From: Candidatus Aenigmatarchaeota archaeon
GTDB taxonomy: Archaea; Aenigmatarchaeota; Aenigmatarchaeia; Aenigmatarchaeales; JACQIB01
Assembly (NCBI GenBank): GCA_038999215.1
Contig: JAWABM010000001.1
Coordinates: forward strand, 1 to 15,338
Direction: 5' to 3'
DNA length: 15,338 nucleotides
Below the pieces are notes generated by a model that was given only the letters and a program-made list of their open reading frames with translations, searched no databases and was not told where the DNA came from. Both the position numbers and the translations under genes were made by a program. How positions within the stretch are numbered: position 1 is the stretch's first letter; each line of letters starts with the position of its first letter. Below are positions 1 through 13,231 of the stretch, one piece after another.

Positions 1-1745
1 GGAAGCTCGAAGCGGACAAGGTCGTGTACGCGGCCAGGGCCTCGATGATAATCTCCGTGGTGGTCTTCCTTTCACTCGGCGCCGCGGCGTTACTGTTCGG
101 AACCAACCCGATAATATTCCTTGTTGCAGCGGCCGTGTTCCCCCTCATATGCAACCAGCTCGTATCGGACTATCCCAAGAGCGTGGCGAAGCAGCGGGCA
201 CTTACGGCGCTGGGCACGTCGCCGCAGATAGTCGCGCAGCTGGCAGCCAGCCTGAAACAGAACCCGAACCTCGAGAAGGCGATGGAGTTCGTTGCCGAGC
301 ACGGCGAAGGGGAGCTGGCGGACGACTTCAGGAAGACCCTCTGGAGGATGTGGACAGGCAAGGTAAGCAGCGCAGCGGAAGCCTTGCCTGCGATAGCGGA
401 CAGGTGGGGCAGATGGTCAGAGGGCTTCCACAGGGCGATGTACCTGATAATATCCAGCCAGCACGAGAGGAACCCGGCAAGGAGAAGGTTCTCGCTCGAC
501 AGGGCTGTCGAGGCGGTGCTGGACGACATGCTGACGAAAATGAGGGAGTACTCCTATGGCCTGCACATACCGACGCTGATACTCTTCAGCTTCGGGATCA
601 TAATGCCGCTGATACTCATATCTTTGTTCCCGTTGTTAGGTTTCTTCGGCATACCGCTTTCCATCGAGGCCATAACACTCTTCCTGCTCGGCTCGATATT
701 CGCCGTGTACACGTACTCGAACACAGTGCTCGGCAAGAGGCCCGTGACCTTCCCGATGCCCGATGTGAGGACGAAGGTGCCGCGAGGGTACCTGAGCATG
801 TGGAACCATGTGCTGCCGGCTGTGCCGTTCTGCGTTGCAACAGGCCTGCTAATAAGCTTCCCCTCGATATTCTACCTTTTCACGCTGACCGGCGCGATAG
901 CGCTGCAGGGGCCGTTCGGCGACTTCATAAGCTTCGTCAACACGATGCCGCTGATATGGGGCATAGGCCTGCCGCTGGCGCTGTACGCGTACGGCAGCAG
1001 CTGGTTCAAGAAAAAAGAGCGGGAGCGCATAGCGAAGATAAACAACCAGATACCGGACGCGCTCTACCATATAAGGAGCGTGCTCTCGGACTCGAGGCCG
1101 ATGGAGGAGGCGCTCGACTTCGCAAGCAAAGCGCTCGGCAGGAGCGAACTGGGAGCCAGGCTGCGGGAGACCGTGAACATAATCAGGAGGAGGCACATAA
1201 CCTTCGAAAGGGCTGTCATGGGCGAGGGCGGGATAGGCCATATTTCCAAGGCGGCGAACACGGCGTTCTCGCTGCTCATCGCCTCGATGAGGAAGGGTAT
1301 AAAGAACGCGTCGCAGACCTGCGACGTCATTTACAGGTACCTCTCCAAAATAAAGAAAATAGAGAAATCGATGACGCTCATGCTCGAGCGCAACCTTTCG
1401 ATGATGAGGCTGACCGCAATGGTCTTTGCGCCGCTGGTCTGCGCGATAATCGTAGTCCTGTTCCAGCTGATACTGAAGGGCGTGACCGGAGCGTTCGAGA
1501 GGTTCCAGGTCATGGGCTTCATGCCTATAATGCCGATAAGCTCGCCCTCGATACCCACGCCCGTGCTGCAACTGATATTAGGGCTTTATTCGCTGGGCCT
1601 CAACTTCGTGCTCATAAGGTACATCTCCATGGTGAGGCACGGCGACGACCCTGTGGCCATAAACCTGGAGCTGGCCAAATCCACGGCGATATCGCTCACG
1701 CTCTTCACAGCAGCTTTAATAGCGTTGTGGACCTTATTGATTTAG
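1..1745 (+). CDS. Type II secretion/type IV pilus inner-membrane platform protein (GspF/TadC/ArlJ-like, two-domain), 5' truncated by window
   Basis: Frame is open from base 3 (KLEADKVVYAAR...). Multiple TM segments alternate with two soluble segments of GspF-like pattern (LAASLKQNPNLEKAMEFVAEHGEGELADDFRK; QIPDALYHIRSVLSDSRPMEEALDF). Directly followed by pilin-like genes. Confidence 0.75.
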   Translation, partial: KLEADKVVYAARASMIISVVVFLSLGAAALLFGTNPIIFLVAAAVFPLICNQLVSDYPKSVAKQRALTALGTSPQIVAQLAASLKQNPNLEKAMEFVAEHGEGELADDFRKTLWRMWTGKVSSAAEALPAIADRWGRWSEGFHRAMYLIISSQHERNPARRRFSLDRAVEAVLDDMLTKMREYSYGLHIPTLILFSFGIIMPLILISLFPLLGFFGIPLSIEAITLFLLGSIFAVYTYSNTVLGKRPVTFPMPDVRTKVPRGYLSMWNHVLPAVPFCVATGLLISFPSIFYLFTLTGAIALQGPFGDFISFVNTMPLIWGIGLPLALYAYGSSWFKKKERERIAKINNQIPDALYHIRSVLSDSRPMEEALDFASKALGRSELGARLRETVNIIRRRHITFERAVMGEGGIGHISKAANTAFSLLIASMRKGIKNASQTCDVIYRYLSKIKKIEKSMTLMLERNLSMMRLTAMVFAPLVCAIIVVLFQLILKGVTGAFERFQVMGFMPIMPISSPSIPTPVLQLILGLYSLGLNFVLIRYISMVRHGDDPVAINLELAKSTAISLTLFTAALIALWTLLI

Positions 1746-1754
1746 GGGAGAGCA

Positions 1755-1937
1755 ATGGAAGGGCTTCCGTTCAAGTACATCGTGATGCTGATTGCCGCAG
1801 CGCTGGTAGTGGGCGCCCTGATGATGGCGCTGGACCTTCTCACGGCCACGGCGAAAGCCACCACGAGCTCGGCGAACGCCACGCTGATGGACGCCCTGAA
1901 CAACTCGCTCAGCCGGGCGGTCAAAAGGACGCCGTGA
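1755..1937 (+). CDS. Small type IV pilin-like protein (MEGLPFKYIV..., 60 aa)
   Basis: N-terminal hydrophobic helix paralogous to the next gene (IEGLPLKYIL). AGGGGAG SD-like sequence upstream. N-glycosylation sequons NAT, NNS. Confidence 0.7.
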   Translation: MEGLPFKYIVMLIAAALVVGALMMALDLLTATAKATTSSANATLMDALNNSLSRAVKRTP

Positions 1938-1974
1938 TATTATGTATTTAAACCTTAGCCAACAAATATTTCGT

Positions 1975-2172
1975 ATGCGAAAGATGAAGGGGATAGAGGG
2001 GCTGCCTCTCAAGTACATTCTGATAATCCTTGTGGCGGCGCTCGTGATAACCGCAGTTGTGACTATAATCAATACCATTACCATGCAGGCCATGCTCAGC
2101 ACGAACCAGACCCTGGCCATAATGAACGAAACGACGAGCCACGCGCTGGACATACTGAGGAACACCACCTAA
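1975..2172 (+). CDS. Small type IV pilin-like protein with class III signal peptide (MRKMKG|IEGLPLKYIL..., 65 aa)
   Basis: Basic leader, KG, then hydrophobic stretch. Start moved from 1942 to ATG 1975, about 25 nt after TTTAAA (1947-1952). Sequons NQT, NET, NTT. Confidence 0.75.
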   Translation: MRKMKGIEGLPLKYILIILVAALVITAVVTIINTITMQAMLSTNQTLAIMNETTSHALDILRNTT

Positions 2173-2203
2173 GGCTTATATCTTTTCGTCCTGAACTTCT
2201 ATT

Positions 2204-2641
2204 GTGAAAGGGCTAGAGGTAATGCCGATAAGGTTCATCGCCGGGCTGGCCATAATAGCCATGGTGGTGAGCGTCGGCTTCTACGAGCTGAACACGTACG
2301 TGGAATTCAGGAAGCAGCAGAAGTTCAAGGAGGAGATGGTGGGCTTCTACCAAACCATACGCACCATGCAGAGCCTTGGTGACTACGGGAGCTTCACCTC
2401 TGTCCAGCTGCACGTGCCCAAAGGCTACCTGCTCCAGATAGACAACGCCACCAACAAGCTGATCGGCACGCTCGACACAGGCGAGATATACGTGATAAAC
2501 CTCACGGCGGACGTGACCAACATCTACCTGCCGGCCGGCTGCGCGCCTTCGGGCTGCCTGATGGGAGAGGCCGAGTACGAGCTGAGGCTGGCGTACGGGC
2601 AGCCCGAAAATCCGAAGAACTTCACGGTGGTGTTCGTATGA
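2204..2641 (+). CDS. Minor pilin-like protein (MKG|LEVMPIRFIAGL...)
   Basis: GTG start about 25 nt after TTATAT. KG plus hydrophobic helix followed by a beta-rich soluble domain. Overlaps next gene by ATGA. Confidence 0.7.
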   Translation: MKGLEVMPIRFIAGLAIIAMVVSVGFYELNTYVEFRKQQKFKEEMVGFYQTIRTMQSLGDYGSFTSVQLHVPKGYLLQIDNATNKLIGTLDTGEIYVINLTADVTNIYLPAGCAPSGCLMGEAEYELRLAYGQPENPKNFTVVFV

Positions 2642-2982
2642 TAGACTGGTTCGTCTCGAAGATAGGCATGCTGCTGTTCGTGGCAGTGGCAATGGGCCTG
2701 CTGATAGGCTTCGCCAGCATGCAAGCGGGCTTTTTCGAGCAGGAGAAAGACGCGAGAGCAGCAGAGGACGTGGCCAGGCTGATAGACGCTGCCGCTGACG
2801 GCGGGTCAGTGACATACCGCCCAGACATAGGGAACTACACTCTCGTCGTGAACAGCAACCGCCATTCCGTCGCCGTCAACGGCCATGAGAGGTTCTTCTA
2901 TGCGAACGCCAGCGACGCCACGATAACAGGGAAGGACGCGATAAAGATAGAAGGGAGAGGAGGCAATGTCACGGTCTCTTAA
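2638..2982 (+). CDS. Pilus-locus membrane-anchored protein (minor pilin-like)
   Basis: N-terminal TM helix, ATGA coupling to the upstream gene, several NxS/T sequons. Confidence 0.6.
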   Translation: MIDWFVSKIGMLLFVAVAMGLLIGFASMQAGFFEQEKDARAAEDVARLIDAAADGGSVTYRPDIGNYTLVVNSNRHSVAVNGHERFFYANASDATITGKDAIKIEGRGGNVTVS

Positions 2983-3373
2983 GGGCGAACTCGGAGAGGA
3001 GGTCTTCGCCGTGATATTCATCATAGCCCTGATATTCGTGTTCATAATGTCCGTTCTTGGGGCGTATACGAACTACCTGAACATGCAGGAGACCATAAGC
3101 TCCGGCCGCATCGCGAGCGAGCTGGCCGAAAGCATGTTCTTCTCTAACCAGGGCATCATAACTGAGGAGGCCTGCCAGAGCCTGAACAGGACTTACGGGA
3201 ACCTGTCGAACGTCCGAATAGATATATTATATAGGCAGGAAAACGGCCTGAAAAACTGCTCCGCCGGCTCTGTTGCCGAAGGGGACCAGGCAGTTGCTTC
3301 GATGCCGCTGCTGATTGCAGCGGACGGAAAATACTATCCTGGGAAGGTGAGGGTGCATGTTGGGACAGGCTAG
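2966..3373 (+). CDS. Minor pilin-like protein (MSRSLKG|ELGEEVFAVIFII...)
   Basis: Class III-like signal (KG, Glu at +5, hydrophobic helix). Overlapping operon arrangement. Confidence 0.65.
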   Translation: MSRSLKGELGEEVFAVIFIIALIFVFIMSVLGAYTNYLNMQETISSGRIASELAESMFFSNQGIITEEACQSLNRTYGNLSNVRIDILYRQENGLKNCSAGSVAEGDQAVASMPLLIAADGKYYPGKVRVHVGTG

Positions 3374-3878
3374 CATGATAGACATCCTGCTGCTGGGGCT
3401 GTTCATCTCGTTCGTGCTCATAGGAGGGGCGGTGTTCATAGGCCAGGAGGAGCTCAGGGCGCAGTCTGGCAAGGAGGAGGCAGTGTACGCCCAAGGCATG
3501 CTCATCACCGCGCTGCAATGGCGGAACGCAACGCTGTCGAACATGACTGGCAGCGAGCTCATAGAAGCCTGCTTCTGCGGGGACGAACGGCAGCCGTTCA
3601 ACGGCACTATGAAGGCCATGGAGCAGGTCATGAACTGGACCAACAGGGACGGCTACAACTACATTTTTTACGTTGAGGCGAAGAACGCCACGTGCGGCGG
3701 CCGCAACGAAACGCTGAGCATATATGACAGGCAGGCGACAATCTGCGCGAAGCACCTGCCCTCGATAGCGCATTCCACGCATATGATATTCTGCCCGTCG
3801 GACGGCAAAAGGGTCGTGCTGGAATATTATATGGGCATATGGCCTTCCTGGAAGGACCTACCATTGAACTGCACCTAG
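3357..3878 (+). CDS. Minor pilin-like protein (MLG|QASMIDILLLGL...), Cys-rich C-terminal domain
   Basis: G|QxS N-terminus with hydrophobic helix typical of archaeal pilins. Six Cys and many NxS/T sequons. Confidence 0.65.
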   Translation: MLGQASMIDILLLGLFISFVLIGGAVFIGQEELRAQSGKEEAVYAQGMLITALQWRNATLSNMTGSELIEACFCGDERQPFNGTMKAMEQVMNWTNRDGYNYIFYVEAKNATCGGRNETLSIYDRQATICAKHLPSIAHSTHMIFCPSDGKRVVLEYYMGIWPSWKDLPLNCT

Positions 3879-6478: not shown

Positions 6479-6554
6479 ATTTTGATTCCTCCTTGCATGT
6501 TGACTATCAAGCGGTATGCGCTTGTGCGCATCTTTTTGGTGTATTCTTCATCAG

Positions 6555-6570
6555 CGAAATGCTTTTATAT
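6555..6570 (+). promoter_or_regulatory. Archaeal BRE/TATA-like promoter (CGAAA...TTTTATAT), divergent from ftsZ
   Basis: Matches archaeal consensus and predicts a start near 6593-6595. The reverse strand (ATATAAAA) could alternatively or also serve ftsZ. Confidence 0.5.
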
Positions 6571-6593
6571 CAAGCAGCATGATATTTCCTTTA

Positions 6594-6753
6594 GAACAAG
6601 GCTCGTTTGCCCAAATGAGCTGCAATTGATACGTTAGACTGGAGTGAACTTACACGTTGCCCAACAGGTAAGTTTGCCCGAACTTACATGCGAACGAACA
6701 TTCACGTGAACTTTGCCCAAAGTTGCGTGAACGAACCAATTAGTTTTTTCTTT
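6594..6753 (+). ncRNA. Candidate structured small RNA with four GCCC-loop hairpins
   Basis: Hairpins at 6601-6620, 6647-6674, 6668-6687 and 6701-6731, each centred on TTGCCC(A/G)A. G-U wobbles favour the + strand. TATA upstream and TTTTTTCTTT at 6744-6753. Confidence 0.45.
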
Positions 6754-6950
6754 AAGGCTATATAAAGCGATTTGTATAGAATAAAATATACTTCAATTTA
6801 TAATGTTTTTCGGCCTGCTTTGGCGTTTTTTGGGAAAAAATCATAAATTTTTCAACTTCATCCAAGAGCTATGCCACAAGTAATGGCCGCCGAAGCCAAG
6901 CAAGGAGCATCTGGAGGCTTTGCTGGCAGACGAGAATGCCTTTCCCTGAA

Positions 6951-6995: not shown

Positions 6996-7112
6996 GCCCA
7001 GGTAGCTCAGCGGAAGAGCGTCCGGCTGTTAAGAAGCGCCGCCGCTTCATCAGCGGAAGGGCTTCAGACGGGAACCGGCAGGTCGCAGGTTCAAATCCTG
7101 TCCTGGGCGCCA
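6996..7112 (+). tRNA. tRNA-Asn(GTT) with 42-nt intron at 37/38 (7032-7073), encoded CCA; copy 1
   Basis: Acceptor GCCCAGG/CCTGGGC, D-arm GCTC/GAGC, anticodon GTT 7028-7030, T-loop TTCAAAT, G73-CCA. Splice motif: CTGT pairs with ACGG (7068-7071) flanked by 3-nt bulges TA|A and GA|A. Confidence 0.96.
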
Positions 7113-10754: not shown

Positions 10755-11064
10755 GTGAAACCTGTGAGAGGGGATCTAGAAAATAACGGATTCTCAGGAT
10801 CTGCGTAGTTTCACCGCTAAAGTCGATTCAAAAGGAAGGATTCTTGTCCCGAAGCCAATAAGGCTGCTCTATTCCCTTGACCGAGACTCGGTCGTTTCGC
10901 TTCATGTTGCCCAGGTAGCTCAGCGGAAGAGCGTCCGGCTGTTAAGAAGCGCCGCCGCTTCATCAGCGGAAGGGCTTCAGACGGGAACCGGCAGGTCGCA
11001 GGTTCAAATCCTGTCCTGGGCGCCAAAGCTTAAAAAAGAGGCAGGGCTAATAGAAGGTGATTGA
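10755..11064 (+). pseudogene. AbrB/MazE/SpoVT-family DNA-binding domain reading frame lacking a canonical in-frame start; runs through tRNA-Asn copy 2
   Basis: Frame open 10780-11064 encodes SFTAKVDSKGRILVPKPIRLLYSLDRDSVVSLHV (swapped-hairpin signature). TTTTATAA at 10722-10729. GTG 10755/10764 lie one base out of frame; ATA 10783 follows GAGGGG. Confidence 0.65.
10909..11025 (+). tRNA. tRNA-Asn(GTT) with 42-nt intron (10945-10986), encoded CCA; copy 2, identical to copy 1
   Basis: Base-for-base match to 6996-7112 including the intron. Confidence 0.96.
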
Positions 11065-13110: not shown

Positions 13111-13231
13111 GGGCCCGTGGCTTAGCATGGATAGAGCGCCTGGCTTCGGAGCACCCTTTTAAGAAAAGGCTGCACCGAAAAACCGCGGAGAAACCAGGAA
13201 ATCGGGGGTTCGAATCCCTCCGGGCCCGCCA
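13111..13231 (+). tRNA. tRNA-Arg(TCG) with 43-nt intron at 37/38 (13150-13192), encoded CCA
   Basis: Acceptor GGGCCCG/CGGGCCC, anticodon stem CCTGG/CCAGG, TCG 13146-13148, T-loop TTCGAAT. BHB: CTTC pairs with GGAG (13187-13190), bulges GG|A and AA|A. TTAAAT upstream. Confidence 0.96.

Follow-up and report, generated by a model that had tools for sequence, protein, structure and literature searches.

A conserved candidate antisense RNA module upstream of ftsZ2 in DPANN archaea

What takes the place of cdrS upstream of ftsZ2 in the DPANN archaea? The cdrS gene is reported to adjoin ftsZ2 in all archaeal clades except DPANN (PMC7439475). The question arises in a 15,338-nucleotide (nt) window, the whole stretch of DNA analysed here, at the start of a contig (JAWABM010000001.1) in a 571-kb, 88%-complete genome of a Candidatus (Ca.) Aenigmatarchaeota archaeon. 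Upstream of ftsZ2, the word TTGCCCRA occurs four times (at 6607, 6657, 6674 and 6713, all on the + strand), each time at the apex of a different stem; a first-pass annotation of this DNA had reported as much, and both positions and folds were confirmed. That annotation took the array for a free-standing small RNA (sRNA) divergent from ftsZ, adding in a side remark that it might instead be a sense/antisense pair with a long ftsZ leader. Our comparisons suggest an undescribed, widely conserved RNA module that resembles plasmid antisense systems without being a member of them; its RNAs are predicted, and we infer its mechanism from sequence.

The hairpin array and its promoters

Four copies of TTGCCCRA in the window as a whole are unremarkable (16 of 200 shuffles reach four), whereas four copies inside 145 nt are beyond chance: any 6-mer occurred four times in 36 of 20,000 shuffles of that stretch, and the cluster has a probability of ~2 × 10−11 at the genome-wide rate. 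Folded singly, the hairpins form as drawn on the + strand (z −2.4 to −3.7 against shuffles), but the whole 166-nt region folds weakly (z −1.5 on the + strand and −1.6 on the − strand). The overlap of hairpins 2 and 3 (6668–6675), first described as mutual exclusion within a possible switch, is real, although hairpin 2 is favoured (−11.3 versus −7.6 kcal/mol; minimum free energy and centroid structures); it is kept in one of the two closest relatives and missing from a same-genus genome, and the switchable element was abandoned. Three pairs said to be G-U on the + strand and A-C on the − strand are present, but hairpin 4 is equally stable on both strands (−11.5 kcal/mol each). Likewise, GAACGAAC, noted after hairpins 3 and 4, is present in the window (6692 and 6729) but kept in neither of the two closest relatives. 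All window loops cross-pair at approximately −9 kcal/mol. Only short stop-to-stop frames cross the array, in agreement with the initial view that it holds no convincing open reading frame (ORF); given these short frames and the variable length of the zone across loci, a small protein encoded in the spacer was rejected. The array region is single-copy in the genome, and a dispersed repeat or mobile element was rejected because of this and because other paired matches in 15 probed relatives stood at control level. Searches of Rfam 15 bore out the suggested novelty: at the gathering score the window gave tRNAs only and none of 12 relative loci matched a family, and the best E value in the region was 4.1. 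No literature match for the motif was found, although it could be listed in a non-coding RNA catalogue published as a supplement or in a subscription journal.

Two predicted promoters bracket the array and point inward: P+, for the antisense RNA, and P−, for ftsZ2 (Table 1). The transcription factor B recognition element (BRE) and TATA box of P+, the T-tract and the minus-strand TATA box (6759–6766) all lie where they were first placed. P+ is the best position weight matrix (PWM) match in the genome and scores at least 17 bits in 54 of the 57 ftsZ2 ortholog loci, the same loci on which the PWM was trained; many of the 24 loci, among 124, in which P− was missed are cut-off contigs. The BRE score is at least 2 of 3 in 86 of 100 loci for P+ and in 89 of 100 for P−, and the P− TATA box is readable outward in 11 of 100. 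At the probable antisense 3′ end, the T fraction is 0.59, compared with 0.29 at the mirror position, and is the higher of the two in 93 of 100 loci. The predicted + RNA would be complementary, as an antisense, to the opening ~145 nt of an ftsZ2 leader of ~260 nt; across loci, predicted antisense RNAs span ~100–250 nt and predicted leaders 144–489 nt (97 loci). Since the two promoters are conserved and lie on either side of the array, a sense/antisense pair is the best reading, and the former side remark becomes the preferred one. A structured + RNA that carries repeated loops and has a promoter of its own is supported by promoter conservation and stem variation, but as an antisense to the ftsZ2 leader rather than as a free-standing divergent sRNA. 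More specifically, we put the probability at about 0.5 that this chromosomal RNA pair limits or times ftsZ2 expression.

Conservation across DPANN archaea

Tree and synteny separate the window protein from secE-linked FtsZ1, and its gene is therefore assigned to the ftsZ2 type. The protein groups with cdrS-linked FtsZ of Jordarchaeia (SH-like approximate likelihood ratio test 100, in a quick IQ-TREE analysis of 66 proteins that carried a long-branch warning), and a ribbon-helix-helix ORF lies directly upstream of the Jordarchaeia gene in this grouping. The genome's other ftsZ (ftsZ1) is followed by short ORFs that we take to be secE, spt5 and rpl11. Among named organisms, the closest relatives of the genome's FtsZ carry the label Ca. 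Aenigmatarchaeota.

Upstream of ftsZ2 orthologs a shared plan recurs: ribosome-binding site, AT element, P+, TTAGAA-like start, repeated short word, T-rich tract and P− with its AT element. Sequences long enough to delimit the zone between the promoters (93–260 nt) were available for 52 of 57 ortholog loci, from 19 of 23 families, and 155 further loci comprised 69 new positives, 50 duplicates and 36 low-scoring loci. A zone's own top 5-mer occurs at least twice in 116 of 120 zones and at least three times in 68 (counts with no null comparison). By eye, the plan was read in two other phyla, that of genome G209 (15 of 19 loci) and that of genome G210 (Undinarchaeota by record label; 13 of 14 loci); one set of automatic zone calls was unreliable (17 of 28 called, several misplaced), and only its hairpin list was used. 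The plan was not seen before ftsZ1 in six relatives, nor in loci L064, L216, L219 or L117/L119/L120, and was not clearly present in two Woesearchaeota ftsZ2-side loci. Loci L216 and L219 hold long-branch ftsZ2-like copies that lack the RNA module and have a coding region immediately before them. The predicted module is thus conserved in Ca. Aenigmatarchaeota and, judging from visual inspection, in another two phyla of DPANN. Its context is chromosomal, and the neighbours of ftsZ2 differ among loci (the largest neighbour family, downstream and convergent, occurs in 39 of 128) while the array stays; the element therefore travels with ftsZ2, and a co-encoded partner gene was rejected because no neighbour is constant. 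The simplest form of the module, and the one best suited to a covariance model, is seen in one phylum (loci L304–L314), where the antisense RNA has a conserved 5′ hairpin (UGAA/GAAA-type loop) and one long recognition hairpin.

Stems and loops

Pairing in the array exceeds expectation. The 52 zones contain 106 Watson–Crick hairpins, 82 of them with CC in the loop, compared with 28–59 and 5–13 in 20 shuffles, and at least 6 of 8 Watson–Crick pairs flank 49 of 58 CGCCAA and 73 of 113 YGCCCR copies selected by word (genome-wide control, 22 of 1,594). Stems have a median of 10 bp and are mostly Watson–Crick, and therefore fold on both strands; those of CGCCAA show all four pair types at each of six positions. 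In hairpin 1 of the closest relative (96% FtsZ identity), a C-G to U-A double change stands beside G-U/G-C exchanges, and the comparison with the two closest relatives gives one double and several G-U/G-C single changes. The + strand has the lower z in 40 of 52 zones, and G-U pairs on it outnumber A-C pairs by 27 to 14 in distinct contexts (P = 0.06) and by 26 to 12 and 23 to 11 (~2:1) in word-selected stems, counts that are tendencies since the relatives are not independent. Calibration of G-U against A-C on tRNAs was uninformative, as ARAGORN draws no A-C pairs. The + strand appears modestly favoured, and so weak a bias is consistent with a requirement that the two strands both fold.

Each genome repeats the same loop word, but the word changes from lineage to lineage (TGCCCR, CGCCAA, TGTCCR, AACCCG, GTCCCA and others). 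CGCCAA is the commonest (37 of 161 unique CC-loop hairpins), most others have a GCC core, and the window has GCCC. The words also change polarity: a homologous hairpin in the Undinarchaeota phylum has the loop TTGCCG in 4 of 10 cases and its reverse complement, CGGCAA, in 6 of 10, and all copies are G-rich in L014/L165, L041, L313, L283 and L302, beside C-rich relatives. Drift can be fast, the TACCT-stem hairpin having seven different loops in nine single-loop loci (11 were flagged; L049 and L011 were dropped for further copies) and two loop types in nine two-loop loci, among which L188 changed both together and L191 is mixed. Polarity flips and fast single-copy drift favour base pairing (kissing) over a fixed protein reader, and loop changes would compensate automatically because sense and antisense in cis share the same DNA. 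We know of no other system in which loops match within a genome yet invert polarity between lineages.

Proposed mechanism

The conserved promoters suggest that P− would give an ftsZ2 mRNA with a long leader and that P+, inside this leader, would give a 100–250-nt RNA exactly complementary to the leader's 5′ part. Comparison shows that both strands can fold into hairpins with complementary GC-rich loops of 4–7 nt, which would kiss before the duplex zips up. With identical loops, any antisense loop could engage any sense loop, which would account for copies that agree inside one genome while differing from lineage to lineage. The final and weakest step would be mutual transcription interference together with early (factor-dependent) termination or decay of the paired leader, so that FtsZ2 would be subject to a threshold or toggle. 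Both promoters are probably biased in addition by DNA-binding proteins acting via the shared AT element, the palindrome at 6516–6531 and a TTCACGTGAA site in hairpin 4.

Several observations weigh against this reading. No effector step is visible in the leader: blocking the overlap leaves the accessibility of the ribosome-binding site much the same (0.42 versus 0.44 unpaired; shifts exceed 0.15 in 16 of 97 loci), and the longest U-run is 3–6 nt (97 loci). The predicted antisense RNA also ends 70–338 nt short of the ftsZ2 start codon (97 loci). With the ribosome-binding site uncovered, its accessibility nearly unchanged and no long U-run, translation occlusion and simple intrinsic attenuation are unlikely; a ribosome-site switch and a long-U-run attenuator, not seen in this survey of 97 loci, were rejected, and with the site untouched, transcription interference or early termination or decay becomes probable. 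The evidence from covariation is divided: pairs exchange among word-selected copies, but RNAalifold on a 33-sequence close clade gave 10 near-invariant pairs and no compensatory changes, and the pair count in three close sequences is not significant (reached in 54 of 500 shuffles). In several lineages the direct repeats are unpaired and stemless (of 349 copies, just 180 form part of a loop), and some stems may owe their pairing to the TTCACGTGAA palindrome, as in hairpin 4, and would look paired anyway. At P+, 49 of 100 loci have a weaker, reverse BRE (score at least 2) beside the TATA box, although the window has none; in some lineages a short-leader transcript toward ftsZ2 that bypasses the array is therefore possible. 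Finally, cis-antisense kissing does not strictly require identical loops, and a protein reader explains homogeneity within genomes more simply.

A more speculative extension, which we consider unlikely, is that DPANN archaea swapped CdrS for an RNA-only, multivalent kissing-loop toggle whose logic would resemble that of plasmid copy-number control. It would sense the number or concentration of chromosomes, set off FtsZ2 synthesis, and be wired to replication or segregation via TTCACGTGAA sites in common with a repeat array before a conserved AAA+/winged-helix gene.

Alternative explanations

Such a protein reader is central to the alternative that survives best, though we doubt it: a protein-titrating sRNA (sponge), in which the + RNA would offer C-rich motifs to an RNA-binding regulator that co-evolves with the motif, leader overlap coupling the two. 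The CsrB-like sponge of the first-pass annotation stays in contention in this form. It would account for identical loops on different stems within a genome and for motif copies in unpaired A-rich linkers, and it fits the better folding and ~2:1 G-U bias of the + strand as well as the very good conservation of P+. Against it stand the repeated tolerance of reverse-complement loops and the seven loops among nine close single-loop loci. CsrA was found in none of 41 genomes (control matches in 3 of 14), and no second array was detected in the window's own genome or in 15 relatives' genomes probed. Matches to the word at gene starts in this genome were scattered and single, with no clear mRNA set (rough gene caller), and the one beside ftsZ1, the only such match compared, is not kept in six relatives; a regulon sharing the loop word was provisionally set aside.

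It is quite improbable that the leader is a docking platform, on whose G-rich loops a protein would control termination or translation while the antisense RNA merely masks the sites. Stems do fold on the − strand too, and identical loops are repeated, as such a platform would have them; yet the G-U bias lies on the + strand, the leaders of flipped lineages carry the C-rich form, and no structural link to the ribosome-binding site is seen.

A DNA-level element is doubtful to a similar degree; here a DNA-binding protein would recognise repeated sites in either orientation, or cruciform tips, between the convergent promoters, and the RNA would be a by-product. Such an element would account for the homogeneity, for the polarity flips and for direct repeats that lack stems, some of them spaced by ~11–12 bp (10 of 62 stemless spacings), and the array also contains a probable DNA repeat, TTCACGTGAA (20 matches in 100 zones versus 1 in 29.8 kb of far flank). 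However, stems of this length with freely exchanging pairs are unexpected of operators, and G-U exceeds A-C on one strand. Conservation without pairing, the pattern that had been named as favouring operators, does not describe the array stems; it does describe the nearby element at 6516–6531, a type found in 56 of 100 loci with fixed arms and a variable 2–6-nt spacer, as expected of a DNA operator. The stretch from the ftsZ2 start to the antisense promoter often holds more than one palindrome of this GTGC-N3-GCAC type.

For the preferred RNA pair, the TTCACGTGAA palindrome in hairpin 4 suggests a DNA-level input atop the RNA layer. The genome has seven exact copies of TTCACGTGAA, five of them in one cluster, and an array of TTCACGTGAA repeats lies directly upstream of a conserved AAA_22 and winged-helix gene in all 12 loci fetched; paired copies occur in 29 of 41 genomes, with none for the reversed control, and the canonical cdc6 lies 16 kb from this repeat array, a candidate centromere, origin or autoregulatory array. 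The same word appears in the literature on bacterial parS, and a ParB reading was rejected because the 88%-complete genome has no ParB_N.

A trans-acting sRNA whose C-rich loops would seed on other mRNAs is very improbable: exposed C-rich loops are typical sRNA seeds and the promoter is strong and dedicated, but loop drift and flips would demand matching changes in all targets and no candidate target was found.

Comparison with known systems

The plasmid antisense systems with which the predicted pair can be compared include R1 CopA/CopT and those of the I-complex. In the I-complex plasmids (ColIb-P9 Inc RNA/repZ, IncB/O and IncK RNAI/SLI; PMC10724649, PMC3753616), a GCC-containing antisense loop faces UUGGCG, a cis-antisense RNA is fully complementary to the leader, and the first step is loop–loop kissing; the last two are predicted here. 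The ColIb-P9 Inc target loop is UUGGCG (PMC3753616, PMC10724649), of which the DPANN loop CGCCAA is the complement, and the kissing nucleotides of IncB/O RNAI are G37-C38-C39 (PMC10724649). Unlike the plasmid Inc, RNAI and CopA systems, which control rep and block translation on binding, the module is chromosomal and archaeal, has ftsZ2 as its target, carries one to six near-identical loops whose polarity can flip, has no Rfam match, and has an overlap that ends before the ribosome-binding site with no pseudoknot link.

Reciprocal RNA control between opposing operons is described for pCF10 prgQ/prgX (Qs, Anti-Q; PMC3181467), which, like convergent-transcription switches, shares with the module two opposing units whose RNAs could repress each other. 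Here, by contrast, only one unit is protein-coding, and pCF10 needs RNase III. To our knowledge, archaea mostly lack RNase III, and we know of no repeated identical loops in pCF10. StfZ, a 366–552-nt cis-antisense RNA to Escherichia coli ftsZ, is proposed to tune the FtsZ level via translation (PMC9628754); the likeness to a cis-antisense RNA proposed to tune FtsZ does not imply homology, and whereas StfZ is bacterial and longer, the DPANN RNA of ~100–250 nt would form a hairpin array and stop well before the start codon. The array resembles CsrB/RsmZ in that a single short word recurs in its loops and linkers while the stems differ. In those RNAs, the word is GGA and the partner CsrA/RsmA. 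The + RNA differs in having no GGA word, in the absence of CsrA from the 41 genomes searched, in a word that is lineage-specific and flips, and in being cis-antisense to an mRNA leader.

CdrS binds 41–110 nt upstream of starts (PMC8406309). The module shares with CdrS–ftsZ2 the slot directly upstream of ftsZ2 and an activator-like DNA element ~50 nt upstream of a start. CdrS, however, is a ribbon-helix-helix protein, and none is encoded at the DPANN module: RHH_1 was not found in the window's genome, and of 42 genomes queried with a cdrS-like sequence, 7 gave weak matches, in no case on the contig that carries ftsZ2. Judged by position in the sequence, the module occupies the place of cdrS.

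Other features of the window

Identical intron-containing tRNA-Asn(GTT) genes lie at 6996–7112 and 10909–11025, 3.9 kb apart, and their identity stops at the gene borders; the genes between them (an FKBP-type isomerase, a methyltransferase and two unknowns) may be an island integrated at a tRNA. ARAGORN calls a further intron-containing tRNA (13111–13231) SeC(TCA), but moving the intron one or two bases further on gives a simpler reading, tRNA-Arg(TCG). A probable type IV pilus cluster lies at 24–3878, where a run of short ORFs for pilin-like membrane proteins comes after a type II secretion F-like gene.

Table 1 Annotated and predicted features of the ftsZ2 module and the related repeat array
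Feature	Position	Strand	Basis or remark
ftsZ2 coding sequence, 383 aa	5327..6478	-	Pfam Tubulin + FtsZ_C
Predicted ~260-nt ftsZ2 5′ leader; first ~145 nt with G-rich UUGGGC/UCGGGC loops	6479..6737	-	start inferred 29 nt from TATA
Shine-Dalgarno of ftsZ2	6488..6494	-	sequence
Operator-like palindrome, GTGC-N3-GCAC type, 62-77 nt upstream of antisense start	6516..6531	.	comparison; folds on either strand
AT element upstream of P+, consensus ATATATTTT, 8 nt before BRE; degenerate in window	6539..6548	+	PWM consensus
Antisense promoter P+ (BRE + TATA)	6554..6570	+	PWM; top genome match
Predicted ~157-nt cis-antisense RNA	6593..6752	+	conserved TTAGAA start ~30 nt from TATA; T-rich end
Hairpin 1, loop GCCC	6601..6620	+	z -2.5
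Conserved single-stranded linker box, GAUA..ACWG type	6628..6641	+	pattern in 56/120 zones; alignment
Hairpin 2, loop GCCC, preferred over hairpin 3	6646..6675	+	folding
Hairpin 3, alternative to hairpin 2, not conserved	6668..6687	+	folding, comparison with relatives
Hairpin 4, loop GCCC	6701..6731	+	z -3.7; pairing in 92% of cells across three close sequences
TTCACGTGAA palindrome within hairpin 4	6701..6710	.	unit of separate repeat array elsewhere in genome
T-rich tract, probable antisense RNA 3′ end	6744..6753	+	T fraction versus mirror position
ftsZ2 promoter P− (TATA + BRE)	6759..6776	-	called in 100/124 loci
AT element upstream of P−, same element as at P+	6779..6793	-	sequence comparison
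~11-bp TTCACGTGAA repeats in AT-rich spacer + AAA_22/winged-helix gene (gene at G000:C2:26227-27321)	G000:C2:25610-27321 (L229:1311-3022); relatives L231-L242		

Implications

CdrS is reported missing from DPANN archaea (PMC7439475), and for the control of their division the predicted module offers a testable candidate in the same position, one retained by no fewer than three phyla with reduced genomes. If the proposed sense/antisense pairing is true, it would provide an example of kissing-loop antisense control on an archaeal chromosome.
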